From Escherichia phage 235Ecol030PP, in sequence record PP355091.1: a stretch of 64,000 bases of DNA; one strand, written 5' to 3'. Both the position numbers and the translations under genes were made by a program. Of this stretch, positions 2,429 to 61,810 are shown one piece after another; positions within the stretch are counted from its first letter, which is position 1, and every line of letters begins with the position of its first letter. Under the pieces are notes generated by a model, which did no database searches, had not been told where the DNA came from, and saw nothing but the letters and a program-made list of their open reading frames with translations.

Positions 2429-2458
2429 ATTATACCACATCCTTGTGGTAAAGTAAAC
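2429..2458 (-). promoter_or_regulatory. T4-type early promoter (GTTTAC -35, TGnTATAAT -10)
   Basis: minus strand GTTTAC-18nt-TATAAT with TGG extension. Confidence 0.7.
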
Positions 2459-4278
2459 TACTGGCTCATCCATTCTTTACGAAGGTCAGCATTATCTCCC
2501 ATGAGCATTTCAAAAAGCTCTTTCCAGTTCTCAGGAAGTTTAACAACATCATATACTGGGTTTTGAATCATCTCACGATATTCAGATTTTTCCAAAGAGC
2601 CAAGTCCCTTAATATAACGGATGCTATGTTTAGGTAGAGTATCTTTGGCACTCTCATATTCAGCGACTGTATAAAACCATTCTTGTTTTTTACCGACCTG
2701 AGCGATGATTACAGGAGTTTTGACAAAGCGAATTCGTCCTTGCTCAAACAATTCTGGCCAATTACTAAAAAATCCGAGCAGAGAAGGATAAATGCTTCCT
2801 AGACCATCATGGTCAGCATCAGTCATAATAGCGATATTATGATAATTCAAGTTTTCAGCTTTTTCACCAAGAACTAGACCAGTTATTGCGCAAATATCAA
2901 ACAGTTCTTTGTTTTTAAGCATATCTGCATAAGACATACCCCAACTGTTGAGAACTTTACCACGTAATGGATAACCACCGTGAAGTTCTTTATCACGAAC
3001 ATCAATAAGATATCCGATAGCCGAATCACCCTCAGTCAAGAAAAGAGTAGTGTCAGCATCTTTACCACAAAGATTCGCTTTAATATGTTTATGAACCTTA
3101 GCTTTAGAAGCCTTTTTAGCCGCTTTAGTTTCTGCTGCTTTTTCTGCCGCCAATTTACGAGCTAATGCTGCTTCAATAATCGGCATTAAAATTGCTTCAT
3201 TATTTAGAATAGCACGTGAAATCTTTTTAGCATCAAGTTGAATATGACTACGGATTTCACCAAATGGAGAAGTCAAACGCTCTTTAGTTTGAGAATCAAA
3301 TCGCATGTTTTTCATATCACGAACAAACATAACGATAGTCAAACATTCTTTGACACGCGCTTTAGTTACATCAATTTTGAATTTACGTTTGATTTGTGGA
3401 ATAAGGTCTTCACAAATATCATCCATAACACAGTCAATGTGATGGCCACCATTCTTAGTGTGAATGTTATTCACATAAGTTAATTGACGAAAACCATCCG
3501 GTGAACGACCAACCGCAATAGAACAATTTTCTTGTTCTTGAACGATAGCATGTTCATCATACTGTCGTGCATATTTCTTAAAATTGCCCTGAACCTTTTT
3601 ACCATTAAAGGTAAATTGAATATCAGGATAAACTACTGCAAGTGTCTGGAGACGATCCAGTGTAATGTCAAGATAAACTTGGGACAGCTCATTAGTTTCA
3701 AATGACATAAAATCTGGAATGAAAGTAACACGAGTTCCTTTCCATTTTCCAGGAATAGTTTCCCAGGATTTATTTTCCATGCCATTTGAACAACGAACTA
3801 CAATATTATTTTGACCATCGCCAGTTTCACCAACAAACATCACAGAAAAAATGTTTGTCAAACTAGAACCAACACCATTCATACCGCCAGTGACGCGTTC
3901 TTTATCATCACCGAAGTTACCACCTGCTTTTGGAATAGTCCATGCAGCAACAGGACCAGGAATTTCTTCACCGGTAGGTGTTTTAACCATCGCCTGTGGA
4001 ATACCACGACCGTTATCTTCAACTGTTACTTGATTGTTTTTAATAGTAACATTAATTTTATTTGCGAATTTAAACTTAGTACGAATACCTTCATCTACTG
4101 AGTTATCGATAATTTCATCAATAAGCTTAACAAGACCAGGTACATACTGAACACTTTCCCATTTACCAAACAGAAAGCGCTCATGCATTTCATTAGCAGA
4201 AGAGCCAATGTACATGCCGCTACGCTTTTTGATATGTTCAATATCGCTCAGAATTTTAATTTCATTCTTAATCATCAC
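2458..4278 (-). CDS. 39: DNA topoisomerase II large subunit (GyrB-like ATPase + Toprim), unsplit 606 aa
   Basis: KRSGMYIGS ATPase N-terminus, GHKL motifs, Toprim LTEGDSA and DxD (TDADHDG); continuous ORF, no internal stop or bypass gap. Confidence 0.9.
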   Translation of the reverse strand: MMIKNEIKILSDIEHIKKRSGMYIGSSANEMHERFLFGKWESVQYVPGLVKLIDEIIDNSVDEGIRTKFKFANKINVTIKNNQVTVEDNGRGIPQAMVKTPTGEEIPGPVAAWTIPKAGGNFGDDKERVTGGMNGVGSSLTNIFSVMFVGETGDGQNNIVVRCSNGMENKSWETIPGKWKGTRVTFIPDFMSFETNELSQVYLDITLDRLQTLAVVYPDIQFTFNGKKVQGNFKKYARQYDEHAIVQEQENCSIAVGRSPDGFRQLTYVNNIHTKNGGHHIDCVMDDICEDLIPQIKRKFKIDVTKARVKECLTIVMFVRDMKNMRFDSQTKERLTSPFGEIRSHIQLDAKKISRAILNNEAILMPIIEAALARKLAAEKAAETKAAKKASKAKVHKHIKANLCGKDADTTLFLTEGDSAIGYLIDVRDKELHGGYPLRGKVLNSWGMSYADMLKNKELFDICAITGLVLGEKAENLNYHNIAIMTDADHDGLGSIYPSLLGFFSNWPELFEQGRIRFVKTPVIIAQVGKKQEWFYTVAEYESAKDTLPKHSIRYIKGLGSLEKSEYREMIQNPVYDVVKLPENWKELFEMLMGDNADLRKEWMSQ

Positions 4279-4330
4279 TTATCCTCGTTTGGTTTCGGGA
4301 ATATTATACTCCGGTAATCATAAAGTTAAA

Positions 4331-4342
4331 GGCCCGAAGGCC
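4331..4342 (-). other. UUCG-tetraloop hairpin upstream of the topoisomerase gene
   Basis: GGCC-UUCG-GGCC. Confidence 0.5.
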
Positions 4343-4344
4343 TT

Positions 4345-4605
4345 TTATTTAAAACGAATAGTTGAATCCTTAAAGAACAGCCCAGAACATACTGTTCCTT
4401 CTACTTTCTGCCCGGTAGGTCCAATAGCACGAAATCCAGTATGTTGGAAATCATTTTCAGAGCAACCGAGCCAGTTATATCCAGTGATTTCAATATTAGT
4501 AAAACCACTTGAAGACAAAACTTTGGTTGCATTATCAGCATCAGTACATCCTGCTAAAGACACTGCTAATACTAATGCTGCAATAGAACGATTAACATAT
4601 TTCAT
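4345..4605 (-). CDS. putative lipoprotein, 86 aa
   Basis: N-terminal signal peptide with lipobox (LAGC). Confidence 0.6.
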   Translation of the reverse strand: MKYVNRSIAALVLAVSLAGCTDADNATKVLSSSGFTNIEITGYNWLGCSENDFQHTGFRAIGPTGQKVEGTVCSGLFFKDSTIRFK

Positions 4606-4607
4606 AA

Positions 4608-4784
4608 TTACCCTTTAAGCAAGTCGTAAAATCCGCCATTCACATGCTTAGGAGCGGAAACTAACCGAATAGCAATCCGATGACAATCAGGACATACATC
4701 AGTATCCCTTTCAGAAATTTTCTTGATTTTTTCGTATTCTTTTGCGCAGTCTTTGGATTGGCATTTATAATCATAAAGCGGCAT
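4608..4784 (-). CDS. small zinc-ribbon protein (FmdB-like CxxC...CxxC), 58 aa
   Basis: ATG start 3 nt after upstream stop; two CxxC pairs (CQSKDC, CPDC); below ORF-track length cutoff, translated by hand. Confidence 0.45.
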   Translation of the reverse strand: MPLYDYKCQSKDCAKEYEKIKKISERDTDVCPDCHRIAIRLVSAPKHVNGGFYDLLKG

Positions 4785-4786
4785 AA

Positions 4787-5206
4787 TTATTCCTTAAAGT
4801 GAGCTTTCAACATCTGATACAAGGACCATGCTTGTTCATTATTTTCAATAGTAATTTTCATGACTGGGAATTCTGTGAAATCTTCTATTTGTTCTTGCTC
4901 TTCCTGCTCTTGTTCTTCAGCTGCCTGGTATGGATTTTCAACTTCATTAAAGAACTCGGCTTCGTTGCTAGAAAGCCAGATAAAGTTTTCGTCAATGACT
5001 GTACCTCGTGATGAATATCCAACTGTGCCAGTAGATGTCACAATTTTAGTAGGACGCCCGTAATAGTCAACATCTAAAATTTTAAAAGGTTCCATACCTA
5101 AACGCCGCGCATAGATTCCGTTATCAGTATGGTCTTTAATAAAATTTTCTTGAGCTTGTTTATTTTTAAATTGATACCATTTATTAACTTCAAATTTAAT
5201 AGCCAT
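4787..5206 (-). CDS. hypothetical protein with acidic EQ-repeat, 139 aa
   Basis: ORF with [10 protein letters not shown] low-complexity segment; coupled to downstream gene. Confidence 0.6.
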
Positions 5207-5421
5207 TAATAAATTTCCTTCCAGTAAGTTGTGCCATCTTCAGTAATTTCACGAAATACACCATAAATTGGCTGTTTATCGCCGACTTTCTCATACACAT
5301 AAACAGAAGTCAAGTGAGTAAACTTGCTAGTATGTTCCTTTTGAACTACTACCAAATCTGGATCGAATAATACATCTTCAAATTCGTCATTAGTGCAGTT
5401 CTGAACAATTTTACGTTTCAT
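5206..5421 (-). CDS. hypothetical protein, 71 aa (size and position resemble T4 cef)
   Basis: SD GAGGAAA before ATG; early promoter-like element upstream at ~5539-5568. Confidence 0.55.
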
Positions 5422-5592
5422 TACAATTTCCTCATTAATTGAACATTGGAGCGATGCGTTTCAGAAGAGTATCAGCACCTTTAGCGAATTTCCATTTTAT
5501 TCTCCAAGTTGTTTTCTATATCAGTAGTTGATATTGATATAGTACCATAATCAACTACTGATGTATATAGTTTTATGAAAAAATTTTAAACT

Positions 5593-6090
5593 TTATGCAC
5601 AGCGAGCTTTGCTATAGTGTTTAATCCAACTTTCAGGAATGACTTTGTATGTTCCTAAAAATACCGCGTTGTACAGCTTAACACCATCTTCTACCCACTG
5701 ATCGGTAATGTATGCGCACATAGCACGAGTACGGTGTTTTTGAACAACCCCTTCCTCATCTTCAGTAAATTCAAACTCATAAGGAGCAATGAACTTGATA
5801 GCTTGACCAAGTTTCCACTTAAAGTCTACACCTACATGCGAAGTATCAATCGTTTCAATTCCTTTAGCGGGAACAGCTTTCAAAAACGCAGATTCAAGAA
5901 ATTTCGCGCGAACATAACCAAACTGAGGTTTAGACTTTCCATCTTTAGGAATGATACGCACTTTTACTTCAGAATCTTCATCTTTAACGCCGTGTTTAAG
6001 CTGAATGCTTACAATTTCGACCAATTTTCCTGCTGCTTTAGAACGGGATTTATCAGATACACGAGCAATTTCACCAATATTAATAATCAT
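5593..6090 (-). CDS. hypothetical protein, 165 aa (paralog of 6167..6706)
   Basis: ORF; C-terminal block TDQWVEDGVKLYNAVF shared with neighbour. Confidence 0.65.
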   Translation of the reverse strand: MIINIGEIARVSDKSRSKAAGKLVEIVSIQLKHGVKDEDSEVKVRIIPKDGKSKPQFGYVRAKFLESAFLKAVPAKGIETIDTSHVGVDFKWKLGQAIKFIAPYEFEFTEDEEGVVQKHRTRAMCAYITDQWVEDGVKLYNAVFLGTYKVIPESWIKHYSKARCA

Positions 6091-6166
6091 AGTTATCTCT
6101 CACTTGTTAAAAAGATTTTATACTCCACGGGACCATTATACTCTGGTCCCAAGAGTTTGTAAACTA

Positions 6167-6706
6167 TTAATTCAAAATAGCTACCACTGCACTACGAGGT
6201 ACTACGCTAAAATCACCTGCATGAACAACGTTCAGAAGTTCAACACCATCTTCAATCCATTGGTCTGTTACCCAACCACAGACCGAAATAAATGGAGTCT
6301 TGATAGCTACCGCATGAGTTAGAAGGTCAGTAGGATCGCATTCTTGGAAGAGAATAAGCTCTGCTTCAAAGACTATAGTTTTAATTACTTCATCATTATC
6401 TAAGCGATGTGCTCGAATCACATAAGCTTTATTCTTATCATGCCAATTACTTTTTGAAAAACTTTTAACCACAAACTCGCCTTCACCAAAAACACTGGTC
6501 AATGCTTTATAACCCAAATTTAGTTCAGTAGTTTTAATTTCAGTTTCAACCAGTTTGTAGGTTTTGCCAATTTCAATAGCGGTAGTCATAGTAGGTTCCT
6601 TAATTTCCAGTGGTTTAACAGGGCATACATAAGTGCTTACAACATCAAAATCAATCAGTTTAGCTACCGGATTTGGTATGTATTCAGGATTATAATTAAA
6701 TTTCAT
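6167..6706 (-). CDS. hypothetical protein, 179 aa (paralog of 5593..6090)
   Basis: ORF; C-terminal block TDQWIEDGVELLNVVH shared with neighbour. Confidence 0.65.
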   Translation of the reverse strand: MKFNYNPEYIPNPVAKLIDFDVVSTYVCPVKPLEIKEPTMTTAIEIGKTYKLVETEIKTTELNLGYKALTSVFGEGEFVVKSFSKSNWHDKNKAYVIRAHRLDNDEVIKTIVFEAELILFQECDPTDLLTHAVAIKTPFISVCGWVTDQWIEDGVELLNVVHAGDFSVVPRSAVVAILN

Positions 6707-6708
6707 AA

Positions 6709-7209
6709 TTATCTCATTTCAATAAAATCTACGAGTTCAGCATGGGATTTACGGAACATTACTTGGTGCCCGCCAATGATAACTTCATCTTCAGGAACTT
6801 CGTATACAGCGAGATAAAATCCTTTAGAAGATAATTCTTCCCGCTCTTCTCGTGTGAACCATCTCATCATATCATATTCGCTAGCGAAAGCAAAATGATA
6901 AAGAGCTATAAACCATCCTGGAATATGATATTCTACTCCAACATAATCTTTCTTGAACTTAGTATTAATTACTATATTAGCGTTTTTAACTAATAGTTTA
7001 TCTTCGTGTGGTAAAGGAATTCTTTTATTATTATCGCTATGATGCATAAAATTAGGTCTGTCATAACCTACGTGTAATAACCACTCTTCACTCCATGAAT
7101 CTATTATACTTCTATATGGCGTTATTTGAACACAAAGATTTCGACGTATTGTTATAGCATCTTCATAATTAAGAATACTAAAAGATGATTCAACACGATA
7201 AATTTTCAT
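6709..7209 (-). CDS. hypothetical protein, ~166 aa
   Basis: start trimmed to ATG preceded by SD GAGGA; the longer track ORF runs into the upstream promoter. Confidence 0.55.
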   Translation of the reverse strand: MKIYRVESSFSILNYEDAITIRRNLCVQITPYRSIIDSWSEEWLLHVGYDRPNFMHHSDNNKRIPLPHEDKLLVKNANIVINTKFKKDYVGVEYHIPGWFIALYHFAFASEYDMMRWFTREEREELSSKGFYLAVYEVPEDEVIIGGHQVMFRKSHAELVDFIEMR

Positions 7210-7234
7210 TTTATTATCCTCAGTAGCTATGGTG

Positions 7235-7266
7235 TTATAATACCACAACTAACCGAGGAAGTAAAC
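7235..7266 (-). promoter_or_regulatory. T4-type early promoter
   Basis: GTTTAC then ~18 nt then TATTAT on minus strand. Confidence 0.55.
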
Positions 7267-7272
7267 AACTTT

Positions 7273-7956
7273 TTATCGTTTTGTTGGAAGAGACAGAGGA
7301 TCGCACTCTTCCTCTGACGGAGCATCTTCAAGACCCATAGCGTATCGCAAAGCATACTTCATCATCAGGATGTCTTTCGCACAGTCATGAATAGAATTAT
7401 GCGCAACGAATCCATCTAAAGTTCCTTTTGGAAGAGGACATGTGGTCATATCACGAACAAGCAGAAGTGCTTCAATTCTGGTACGAATATCACGCTGATT
7501 CCAAAATTTACAAGGTTCTAACTTAAATGTATCAAGCTCATTCTCAGAAACACCATTAAGACGTTGAATATCGCGAATGAGATCGACTAAAATTGGAAAA
7601 TCAAACGACATTCCACGGCACCAGCCTTGAGATTTCCAAGGATCGATATTATGCGCATTGATGTAATCATTAAATTTTACAATACCATCGATAGTGCTTA
7701 CATCTTCATCTGATGGTGCAATATTTTTTCGAGCTTCAGGAGATTGGTTCTTCCACCATTCAATAGTGCTTTTAGTAAAAAGACGATGTCCTTTTTGGCT
7801 TTTTAAATCAAATTTGATTTTAATGCCACGTGAAACTAATTCATCGAATGTTTCAACGACTTCTGGATTAGGGTCAAAAGCAATTACAGCCAAATCAATA
7901 ACAGCTGCTTTTTCGCCGCTTCCCATTGTTTCAAAATCTATAATAAAATCAAACAT
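7273..7956 (-). CDS. dexA: exonuclease A (DnaQ-like DEDDh 3'-5' exonuclease), 227 aa
   Basis: Exo I motif IDFET near N-terminus, Exo III H-x4-D (HNSIHD); size and position match T-even dexA. Confidence 0.8.
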   Translation of the reverse strand: MFDFIIDFETMGSGEKAAVIDLAVIAFDPNPEVVETFDELVSRGIKIKFDLKSQKGHRLFTKSTIEWWKNQSPEARKNIAPSDEDVSTIDGIVKFNDYINAHNIDPWKSQGWCRGMSFDFPILVDLIRDIQRLNGVSENELDTFKLEPCKFWNQRDIRTRIEALLLVRDMTTCPLPKGTLDGFVAHNSIHDCAKDILMMKYALRYAMGLEDAPSEEECDPLSLPTKR

Positions 7957-8159
7957 TAAATTTTCCTTGCTAAATCGCGAATTTGACCTACAGTATAGTC
8001 TTGAATATAAACTTTATTAATGGGCTCATCAATAAATTTTGCCACAGATTCAATGTCTTTTTGTATCTCTTCAAGACTGTATACTATCTTTGAAGCTTTT
8101 TCGCGAATAGTAATATTTTCAGGACCTGGATTTTCTTCAATGACATCTTTAACACTTGT
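7956..8159 (-). CDS. small hypothetical protein (paralog of 8191..8451); start uncertain
   Basis: shares LEEI..D and I.DY..G.I motifs with neighbour; start set at an internal Met to avoid overlap. Confidence 0.45.
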   Translation of the reverse strand, partial: TSVKDVIEENPGPENITIREKASKIVYSLEEIQKDIESVAKFIDEPINKVYIQDYTVGQIRDLARKI

Positions 8160-18647: not shown

Positions 18648-18676
18648 GATTAATCTCCTCAGTAGTTTATGTTTAT

Positions 18677-20644: not shown

Positions 20645-21007
20645 TTAAAAGAATTTAAATTTTTTCTTTGACCTTTTATTAAATGCATCTTGTAGTTGCA
20701 TTGTAATACATTTTTCTACATGAGGAGCTAACTCAGCTTTTCTTTCTTGGTCAAGAACAGCAAAGTCCATTACAACCTTTCCATCAACCCAATCCAGTTT
20801 TGTTACATACACTATATGTGTAGAACCATCTTCTAGTTTAATGACAATCTCCTGGATAACATTTTCCATAGCAGATTTAATTATCTTAAGAGACTCATTA
20901 AAAAGACGTTCTTTTCTTTCTTCTTCCCCCTCCGAAGAGGGGGATTCGTCGATAATTTCTAGATCTAAATCTAAATCATCTTTATTCATTAAATTCTTCC
21001 ATATCAC
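20645..21007 (-). CDS. hypothetical acidic protein, 120 aa (position of T4 gene 40)
   Basis: ORF overlapping the uvsX 3' end; contains a GC hairpin in its 5' region. Confidence 0.5.
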   Translation of the reverse strand: MIWKNLMNKDDLDLDLEIIDESPSSEGEEERKERLFNESLKIIKSAMENVIQEIVIKLEDGSTHIVYVTKLDWVDGKVVMDFAVLDQERKAELAPHVEKCITMQLQDAFNKRSKKKFKFF

Positions 21008-25467: not shown

Positions 25468-25492
25468 ATCCGTATCAGTAGTTGATAGTTGT

Positions 25493-25522
25493 ATAGTACC
25501 ATAGAAGAACAGGGATGTAAAC
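25493..25522 (-). promoter_or_regulatory. T4-type early promoter with conserved leader
   Basis: GTTTAC-18nt-TGGTACTAT, followed by ACAACTATCAACTAC leader. Confidence 0.7.
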
Positions 25523-49533: not shown

Positions 49534-50442
49534 TTAAGATTTAAGTAAATCAACAATTTTAATTAATTTTTCACGTTCAGATTTAGCTTTACTACTCAAT
49601 CCAGATAGTCTGAAAATTTCATCATCATATTGCTGAATAGAAATATTTAGCTCTTCAATCTGCTTATTAAAATAAGCAATTTGTTCAGAATGTTTTTCAT
49701 TACTGCGAACTGGTACAGGTTTTGTAGGTAATTTAGATGAACTGGATTCATCCGGGCGATAAATTAAAATACAATTTGAACCAATCGGACATTTAGCACC
49801 AGACACATATTCTAATGTTCCGGCTTCTTTTAAAACTTCAAAAGCTAAACAGAGATGATGCCCCATATTAACATAATCTGTAGAGCGAGCTCTGATGTAA
49901 TAATCATCTCCACGAGTACTAAATTTAAAGCATTTAAGGTCTTCTGTATTATTAGTTTTAAAAATCATTTGTTTATCTAGACCTTTAGCTAATCGAGCGC
50001 CTAATGCTAATAATCGTCGTTGATTTTCCCACAAATCCGCAATCATTTGGTCAAATGATAATTTCGGCATTAGTCGACCATAAAGGTCGTATCCTTTATT
50101 ATAATTGCGAAGGATTTCACTCGCGTTAATGCGAGACAACGCTCCAATTTTATTAAGGGCTTTCATGATGCGATTAGATAAACCCATTCCAGACCCGTTT
50201 GTTCGTTGTAAATGTTTATCTAATCCAAACCCAATATCAACTTTAAATTTATCTAAAATTTCAGCATGAACATCTCTGTCAATAACATTCAAATCCAAAG
50301 TTGGGTTAAATCTATGAAAAAATTTATCTGGCTCTCCACGACGAAGTACAGTCCATTCATTCAATTTTTTATTAACTAAAGATTTAATTACTGCATTGAC
50401 ATTATTAATTACTACTGACATATTTTCCTCACTCAATTTCAA
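49534..50442 (-). CDS. hypothetical protein with C-terminal coiled coil, 302 aa
   Basis: ORF; C-terminal QIEELNISIQQYDDEIFRL... Confidence 0.65.
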   Translation of the reverse strand: MKLSEENMSVVINNVNAVIKSLVNKKLNEWTVLRRGEPDKFFHRFNPTLDLNVIDRDVHAEILDKFKVDIGFGLDKHLQRTNGSGMGLSNRIMKALNKIGALSRINASEILRNYNKGYDLYGRLMPKLSFDQMIADLWENQRRLLALGARLAKGLDKQMIFKTNNTEDLKCFKFSTRGDDYYIRARSTDYVNMGHHLCLAFEVLKEAGTLEYVSGAKCPIGSNCILIYRPDESSSSKLPTKPVPVRSNEKHSEQIAYFNKQIEELNISIQQYDDEIFRLSGLSSKAKSEREKLIKIVDLLKS

Positions 50443-57391: not shown

Positions 57392-57421
57392 ATAGTACCA
57401 CAGCTCAAACGGAAAGTAAAC
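57392..57421 (-). promoter_or_regulatory. T4-type early promoter with conserved leader
   Basis: GTTTAC-18nt-TGGTACTAT. Confidence 0.7.
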
Positions 57422-61780: not shown

Positions 61781-61810
61781 ATTATACCACAGTCAAGAGG
61801 AAAAGTAAAC
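61781..61810 (-). promoter_or_regulatory. T4-type early promoter upstream of regB
   Basis: GTTTAC-18nt-TGGTATAAT. Confidence 0.7.

Follow-up and report, generated by a model that had tools for sequence, protein, structure and literature searches.

A stem-loop that encloses the −10 box of the motB–cef early promoter in a T4-like phage: a candidate RNA-level boundary

An inverted repeat in the gap between motB and cef of a T4-like phage brackets the −10 element of an early promoter, in such a way that the spacer of the promoter is complementary to the leader that the promoter transcribes. The element is a T-even member of the published class of promoter-early stem-loop (PeSL)-type cassettes, and it is unchanged in T4, so its novelty is limited. 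Considering the data discussed below, we think it rather probable that the palindrome is the stem-loop of this T-even PeSL-type cassette and that the hairpin acts on RNA that has read through from motB.

The stretch of DNA analysed here (the window; 64,000 nucleotides) comes from a T4-like phage of the genus Tequatrovirus and covers the first 64 kb of its genome, with the early genes on the minus strand. The 2.3 kb around the palindrome show 90–96% identity to hundreds of Tequatrovirus (T4-like) genomes, and the minus-strand gene order, which is gp39 (fused 60plus39), 39.1, 39.2, goF, cef and motB, is the same in RB32 and T4. Within the same gene cluster, the topoisomerase large subunit is encoded by one 606-aa ORF (2458–4278, minus strand), that is, 60plus39 as in RB32 and RB69. 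It does not have the T4-like split into genes 39 and 60, and the gene 60 bypass arrangement is hence absent here. The palindrome is positioned within the 171-bp motB–cef gap, where the sense to be read is that of the minus strand. A search of window positions 5000–6300 against Rfam (E up to 1) gave zero matches, and GenBank M89919, which covers the T4 comC-alpha region, carries no promoter annotation. In the literature, neither usable transcript maps of the motB–cef region nor genome-wide T4 5′/3′ end data were found. The features of the locus are the following.

5593–6090, minus strand: motB, the gene on the 5′ side; both arms of the palindrome would be present in its transcripts.
5569–5592, minus strand: UP-element-like tract aaagtttaaaattttttcataaaac, rich in A/T and adjoining the motB stop codon (5595–5593).
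5563–5568, minus strand: −35-like ATATAC, which agrees at 4/6 positions with the consensus of T4 early promoters, GTTTAC, and is followed by a spacer of 18 nt.
5550–5562, minus strand: upstream (5′) arm ATCAGTAGTTGAT, directly after the −35 hexamer, occupying nt 1–13 of the 18-nt promoter spacer.
5539–5547, minus strand: extended −10, TGG and TACTAT, in the loop of the 13-bp stem.
5535–5547, minus strand: inner 5-bp helix UGGUA (5547–5543)/UAUCA (5539–5535), with one G·U pair and a CUA loop (5542–5540).
5520–5532, minus strand: downstream (3′) arm ATCAACTACTGAT, the conserved early-transcript leader, from the predicted +1.
5481–5505, minus strand: Shine-Dalgarno GGAG (5505–5502), ATG (5495–5493) and a vestigial ORF of four codons, the translation start of the cassette.
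5435–5492, minus strand: remnant 3′ end KFAKGADTLLKRIAPMFN* of an 89-aa ORF, a deletion scar directly 3′ of the cassette.
5206–5421, minus strand: cef, the first intact gene 3′ of the promoter.

Read on the minus strand, the cassette has the order ATATAC, ATCAGTAGTTGAT, TA, TGG, TACTAT, ATCAAT, ATCAACTACTGAT, 14 nt, GGAG, N6 and ATG. A preliminary description of this DNA had claimed a perfect inverted repeat of 12 bp. The repeat is indeed present, and its perfect arms are 13 bp long, one base longer than claimed (5520–5532 and 5550–5562, separated by a 17-nt spacer at 5533–5549). Including imperfect pairing, the arms extend to 23 nt (5517–5539 and 5543–5565), which are 83% complementary around a 3-nt centre. 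The spacer between the perfect arms, TATGGTACTATATCAAT on the minus (coding) strand, harbours TGG (5547–5545) followed by TACTAT (5544–5539). Sigma-70 promoter geometry places the predicted +1 at A5532, 7 nt after the −10 element, and this residue is the first base of the downstream arm. Moreover, the leader and the promoter spacer are perfectly complementary over the first 13 nt of each. The upstream arm is located 5′ of the predicted start site and would therefore be carried only by RNA begun further upstream; on the minus strand, its sequence is present in a single copy in the whole window. The cassette GGAG begins 14 nt beyond the end of the 3′ arm (5520), and the cef Shine-Dalgarno sequence (5433–5430) follows roughly 85 nt after it.

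By its sequence, the palindrome site is a real promoter of the early class. Every other early promoter in the window combines GTTTAC with TAnnnT across a spacer of 18 nt, usually with TGG as well, and the extended −10 at the palindrome is the same TGGTACTAT that is found in others among them. A weight matrix built from 17 other early promoters of the window, with the spacer masked, gives the cef-promoter site 34.6 bits, a score to which the upstream A/T part adds, and rank 13 of 127,842 positions. On this matrix the training promoters span 28–55 bits and the best non-promoter reaches 10.9. The data thus bear out that the repeat brackets the real extended −10 of an early promoter ahead of the cef position. 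As to the earlier remark that there is no good −35 hexamer, the −35 is weak, but ATATAC agrees with GTTTAC at the four of six positions given above and sits at the spacing usual for the family; TATACA (5567–5562) with a 17-nt spacer is an alternative reading. A consensus promoter scan did not report the cef promoter, given its weak −35. It had also been suggested that the downstream arm is a leader common to other early promoters, which the recurrences of ATCAACTACTGA confirm. It recurs exactly at 25486–25475 and with one mismatch each at 18670–18659 and 51441–51430, and each copy is just 3′ of the −10 of an early promoter (25522 for the exact copy, 18706 and 51477 for the others). In the case of the promoter at 25522, close similarity (paralogy) extends over the whole cassette segment between −15 and the ATG. 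A repeated element with a sequence common to other cassettes, which is a feature of PeSLs, is thus present here, both as the −15-to-ATG segment shared with 25522 and as the leader shared with 51477 and 18706.

The minus-strand RNA of this region is predicted to fold into a hairpin with a minimum free energy of −21.1 kcal/mol (fold z-score −5.8), and the DNA strand folds with −12.2 kcal/mol (z −4.8). The inner 5-bp helix is missing from the antisense fold. The length of the arms is not decisive and by itself proves little, since a perfect 12-bp inverted repeat with a 3–40 nt loop is expected in 29% of random 64-kb sequences generated by a first-order Markov model (mean 0.42). On the other hand, mismatched spacer/leader chimeras between promoters pair comparably in only about 2–3% of the cases. 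The window has further perfect inverted repeats of 11–12 bp with loops of 23–30 nt, at 50172–50183/50214–50225 (in apparent coding sequence), 9016–9026/9050–9060 and 32325–32335/32361–32371, and the number of these other repeats is about as in random sequence.

Within the T-evens the element is highly conserved. The same 43 bp are found in T4 (NC_000866 6582–6624), in RB32 and in 18/18 other T-even loci examined, while the flanks vary. The preliminary description had taken a lack of conservation of the upstream arm in related phages as the outcome that would speak against its proposal, and no difference in this arm was seen in T4, RB32 or any of the 18 other loci. About 497 Tequatrovirus GenBank records match a 61-nt query spanning the element with at least 95% identity. 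Scans of IMG/VR and metagenomes yielded few new T-even variants, and the variant series is made up of three variant records (vB_SsoM_113, SA21RB and ERS-1). In vB_SsoM_113 and SA21RB one arm reads ATCGGTAGTTGAT with the partner arm unchanged, which gives a G·U pair on the mRNA strand. In ERS-1 this G is accompanied by the matching change in the other arm (ATCAACTACCGAT), resulting in a G-C pair, and two further records are one position away from ERS-1. This A-U to G·U to G-C series in the T-even element fits the textbook route by which an RNA helix would change, while the opposite strand would hold a C·A mismatch at the G·U intermediate. In this context, the depositors of the SA21RB record (OL960580.1, 311–361) label the same hairpin "rho-independent terminator; discovered using WebGeSTer", which is a prediction.

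Loci carrying cef were also gathered from IMG/VR, metagenomes and GenBank, the last with approximately 980 cef-upstream promoters in phages. Outside the T-evens, where the sources are Mosigvirus, a JS98-like phage, CC31 and unidentified viral and metagenome contigs, the identity of the cef protein is approximately 42–68%; cef is also present in Klebsiella phages in GenBank. The cef promoters of these non-T-even sources likewise have an inverted repeat around the −10 element, with arms that are quite different: GGTCTAT/ATAGACC, GGTGTAGG.../...CCTACACC, GGTAGGAGC/GCTCCTACC, AGGGCTAT/ATAGCCCT and ATAGGGTA/TACCCTAT. For 17 distinct non-T-even cef promoters, which can be aligned free of gaps and in a constant pairing register, 78.7% of the pairing cells are paired, as compared with 64.5% in shuffles that ignore phylogeny (0/500 reach 78.7%). 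Sliding the partner by 1–3 columns reduces the pairing to 33–42%, and in 8/13 pairs there are changes on both sides. A clean double change separates a near-identical phage pair (GGTCTAT/ATAGACC vs TGTCTAT/ATAGACA), and another phage, L038, has an uncompensated change. A different subclass of promoter/stem-loop composite was seen in an IMG/VR contig (cef 42% identical), in which a terminator-like hairpin AAAGAGGT..ACCTCTTT with a T-run, approximately 60–100 nt upstream of cef, wraps the −35 GTTTAC.

The pairing between spacer and leader is a feature of the early promoter family as a whole. The family set comprised 27 T-even early promoters, 18 from the window and nine from T4 (119–169 kb), and for each the duplex energy of the spacer with its own −10 and leader was compared with that of all mismatched combinations. 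Among the 27 promoters, native spacer/leader combinations have a mean of −12.2 kcal/mol vs −7.2 kcal/mol for the chimeras (permutation p = 2e-5), and 12/27 natives are at or below −15 kcal/mol vs 2.7% of the chimeras. For the 18 window promoters, the excess persists when the cef promoter is removed (p about 5e-5), and the same native-over-chimera excess is seen in the Mosigvirus Shf125875 (p about 5e-5). Apart from the cef promoter, seven promoters of the window have a spacer–leader stem (−35 at 61810, 56630, 52919, 51477, 19208, 7266 and 6164, minus strand); these stems are 7–15 bp and include G·U pairs. In five of the 12 strongest examples the 3′ arm lies over the Shine-Dalgarno sequence (61810, 51477 and 7266 in the window, 166807 and 123093 in T4). 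In Shigella phage Shf125875, the promoter with its −35 at 20659 has a 14-bp perfect repeat TTCTCCAGTAGTTG/CAACTACTGGAGAA around the −10 that covers the Shine-Dalgarno sequence, and its core CAGTAGTTG/CAACTACTG is that of the T-even cef palindrome, at a different locus and in a different genus. With respect to T4 itself, a note in the record NC_000866 at 133300–133313 corrects "early promoter Pe133295"; the promoter is at 133331 and has a 7-bp repeat, GGTAGAG/CTCTACC, around its −10.

The stems also differ between the two strands. For the 27 promoters, the sense strand has a mean of −12.2 kcal/mol vs −9.2 kcal/mol for the antisense strand (Wilcoxon p = 6e-4). Under a scoring scheme that is strand-symmetric, the mispairs in the stems on the mRNA-sense strand are 20 G·T vs 1 A·C, where 56% G·T is the expectation from composition (p = 1e-4). 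These results fit the idea that the stems would be selected as single-stranded helices of the sense strand, that is, as RNA. The asymmetry alone does not strictly separate an RNA helix from a helix of sense-strand single-stranded DNA, because G·T mispairs are tolerated in single-stranded DNA hairpins too.

How do these stems relate to terminators? An embracing stem is present at 0/6 promoters that have an upstream hairpin with a T-run vs 12/21 of those without one (Fisher p = 0.02), a comparison with small numbers and a crude definition of a terminator. This exclusivity is visible only in the categorical test that requires the T-run, and the energies of upstream hairpin and embracing stem are uncorrelated (Spearman rho 0.09, 18 promoters). 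At window positions 57421, 53399 and 14490 (minus strand), G+C-rich hairpins with T-runs (e.g., aggactccttcgggagtcct-ttttttt) abut early promoters; they are located in the 60 nt upstream of the −35, and the embracing stem is absent. The stem at cef is, from its predicted form, not a canonical intrinsic terminator. It is A/U-rich and lacks a U-tract (AUAUAGAAAAC here, ACAGAAAAC in T4), and a scan of 4000–8000 for consensus terminators called none at the palindrome.

Taken together, the layout suggests that the state of the RNA would depend on where transcription began. Transcripts of the promoter itself are predicted to begin exactly where the downstream arm does and would carry the 3′ arm only, within an open leader. 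RNA reading through from motB would have both arms and could fold into a hairpin of approximately 20 bp with −21 kcal/mol, beginning some 23–30 nt after the motB stop codon, depending on the helix counted. Since the upstream arm precedes the predicted start site, only motB-derived RNA would be able to form this helix. In this scenario the hairpin would constitute an RNA-level boundary of the motB message. It might attenuate or pause read-through, and/or protect the upstream 3′ end, and/or mark a processing site, and it would take over the task that falls to canonical terminators elsewhere among the early promoters. An RNase III site was considered for the helix of approximately 20 bp with internal loops and rejected as a general explanation, the sister stems being only 7–14 bp. 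A terminator for antisense (plus-strand) transcripts was likewise set aside, as the asymmetry favours the minus (mRNA) strand.

The preliminary description had suggested a mechanism at the level of duplex DNA, in which either a dimeric regulator bound to the repeat as its operator or a cruciform would switch the promoter through its spacer and +1 region. In favour of this, the perfect 13-bp arms flank the −10 and cover positions that RNA polymerase must contact, their centres are 30 bp apart, which is near three helical turns, and, as noted above, a fold is predicted for the DNA strand as well (−12.2 kcal/mol, z −4.8). However, half-sites of 13 bp that are 30 bp apart are atypical for helix-turn-helix dimers, a centre of 17 nt disfavours cruciform extrusion, and the cytosines of T4 carry glucosyl-hydroxymethyl groups in the major groove. 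The strand asymmetry (20 G·T vs 1 A·C, with the sense strand folding better than the antisense strand) argues against a protein site in duplex DNA and against a two-strand cruciform, and so do the orthologous promoters of other genera, which pair by unrelated arms in different registers. Moreover, the A-to-G step among the T-even variants alters one half-site alone and is matched later by a change in its pairing partner; the same step is neutral for an RNA helix, but in a cruciform it would place a C·A mismatch in the other strand. The full palindrome is also unique in the window, where a single arm recurs as a leader. Part of the mechanism by which T4 early promoters are shut off is unexplained (PMC2988021), a further point in favour of a regulator. 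Nevertheless, given the asymmetry, the A-U to G·U to G-C path and the unrelated arms elsewhere, the operator or cruciform is unsupported and we consider it very improbable. We regard as even less credible that the repeat is a functionless quasi-palindrome, perfected by template switching in replication and carried along in close genomes. It is true that a perfect repeat of 12–13 bp is not rare in 64 kb (for a 12-mer, the 29% of random sequences given above), and that T-even genomes are approximately 95% identical, so that identity over 43 bp is weak evidence alone. Yet a repeat of this origin accounts neither for the compensated change through a G·U intermediate nor for the covariation across genera, and it is at odds with a core that stays constant while the flanks vary and with the family-wide excess over chimeras even without the cef promoter (p about 5e-5).

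Two other readings retain the single-stranded helix, or a hairpin, and differ in its use. According to one, the palindrome is a DNA-level recombination element that serves the modular shuffling of PeSLs, and its stem has no function in RNA; it would perhaps act as a single-stranded hairpin of the sense strand during replication or recombination. PeSLs have been proposed to mediate indels and the formation of mini-circles (PMC2839356, PMC4122927), the locus is polymorphic (some T-evens have the complete 89-aa ORF, the window and T4 only its scar), the −15-to-ATG half of the cassette is paralogous to the promoter at 25522, and the tolerance of G·T pairs in DNA hairpins accommodates the asymmetry. 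But the deletion end-points lie in the ORF, neither in the palindrome nor in the promoter, and homologous exchange needs similarity between cassettes, not intramolecular complementarity, to which the unique upstream arm adds none. The exclusivity with terminators is also left unexplained and points to a role towards transcripts. We therefore find a recombination element unlikely. The other reading is a translational gate of the T4 e/soc/49/I-TevI type, where the hairpin in read-through RNA hides a downstream translation start. The 3′ arm over the Shine-Dalgarno sequence in 5/12 of the strongest T-even examples, and likewise at the Mosigvirus promoter 20659 with the same CAGTAGTTG/CAACTACTG core, is what such a gate predicts. 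In the cef element, however, the 3′ arm ends 14 nt before the GGAG (5505–5502), the ORF behind the GGAG is a remnant of only four codons, and the Shine-Dalgarno sequence of cef (5433–5430) is approximately 85 nt further on; moreover, the internal promoters of the known cases are late, not early. A gate of this type is quite unlikely here, and the corollary that the downstream gene would be translated only from transcripts of its own promoter is just as doubtful. The reading that we prefer is, as stated, a hairpin that acts on motB read-through RNA.

PeSL cassettes of T4-type phages were described in RB49 and phi1 (Arbiol et al. 2010, PMC2839356) and have also been listed for PST/T4 and nt-1/KVP40 (Comeau et al. 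2014, PMC4122927). The cef element resembles them in its intergenic A/T tract, followed by an early sigma-70-type promoter, a stem-loop, a Shine-Dalgarno sequence and an ATG, and in its location, which is beside an indel in a plastic early region and has ORFs of the same orientation on either side. A stable stem overlaps the predicted promoter, which consists of the A/T tract and TACTAT with TGG and has a −35 of only 4/6. The stems of RB49 and phi1 most often overlie the −10 or occupy the stretch from the −35 to the −10, with G-T pairs among their base pairs (PMC2839356). The cef stem is over the −10 box, one of these two commonest positions, and G-T pairs are shared between the RB49/phi1 PeSLs and the stems of T-even promoters. 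At the 3′ end, the cef cassette has GGAG-N6-ATG (5505–5493), which is vestigial here and opens an intact ORF in SA21RB and in another of the loci gathered, L006. The differences concern the stems. One RB49/phi1 stem cut lacZ read-through as strongly as rrnB T1 (PMC2839356). The RB49 stems are polyG/polyC, and one blocks read-through, whereas the cef stem is A/U-rich without a U-tract and would be a putative attenuator. T-even analogues with weaker, A/T-rich stems were noted on T4 early promoters (PMC2839356; PMC4122927). For PST/T4, the consensus is TTTACW-N17-TAYWAT, and the stems are described as immediately preceding the promoter (Comeau et al. 2014, PMC4122927). The arrangement here differs, with the spacer serving as 5′ arm and the transcribed leader as 3′ arm.

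The second system to compare is that of T4 e, soc, 49 and I-TevI, in which hairpins in read-through RNA sequester the ribosome-binding site and an internal promoter is present (PMC3014915). The likeness is that the 5′ strand of the helix is missing from RNA begun at the local promoter, which would hold for the cef element if transcription starts at the predicted A5532. In contrast, the promoters there are late and the one here is early, and the 3′ strand there covers the Shine-Dalgarno/AUG, which in the cef element is 14 nt beyond the helix. Covering of the Shine-Dalgarno sequence is seen in the sister promoters 61810, 51477 and 7266. With intrinsic terminators, the element has in common a stable hairpin that closely follows a stop codon and is itself closely followed by the next transcription unit, and the cef hairpin bears the predicted terminator label in OL960580. 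However, the cef stem has neither a G+C-rich stem nor a U-tract, and intrinsic terminators (including the composites at 57421, 53399 and 14490) and the embracing stem are mutually exclusive among the early promoters.

The DNA directly 3′ of the cassette has been rearranged. The window keeps only ATGGAAA and the last 18 codons of the 89-aa ORF (5435–5495), out of frame, and T4 carries the same scar. In SA21RB and four other loci (L006 and L031–33), the full-length ORF (89 aa) begins at the same ATG and stops shortly before cef. The end-points of the deletion are inside the ORF, at a short A-run 3′ of the Shine-Dalgarno sequence and ATG, and are thus outside both the palindrome and the promoter; what the deletion leaves is a 4-codon mini-ORF behind a strong Shine-Dalgarno sequence. 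As far as sequence comparison can tell, this plasticity of the locus agrees with the association of PeSL-type cassettes with indels.

Taken by itself, the element adds a further promoter/stem-loop cassette to those of the best-studied phage family. What the analysis contributes is sequence-level evidence for selection on the sense strand and for a role as a stand-in for terminators, i.e., the G·U mispairs, the A-U/G·U/G-C series and the exclusivity. Such evidence is relevant to the separation of the dozens of tightly packed early transcription units of T4 and to the common leader of the early promoters. This evidence raises the tentative possibility, which we put forward with some reserve, that nearly half of the T-even early promoters (12/27) are inside a hairpin that uses their own spacer and that these hairpins form a genome-wide discriminator of transcript origin. 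If so, the state of the RNA downstream of such a promoter would tell a local start (open leader) from arrival from upstream (folded leader), and the folded leader would sometimes bury the Shine-Dalgarno sequence. Early cassettes would be insulated at the level of RNA, as a substitute for terminators, and the principle known from e, soc, 49 and I-TevI would extend from a few late promoters to the early class. It would also provide a structural reason for the conserved early leader.
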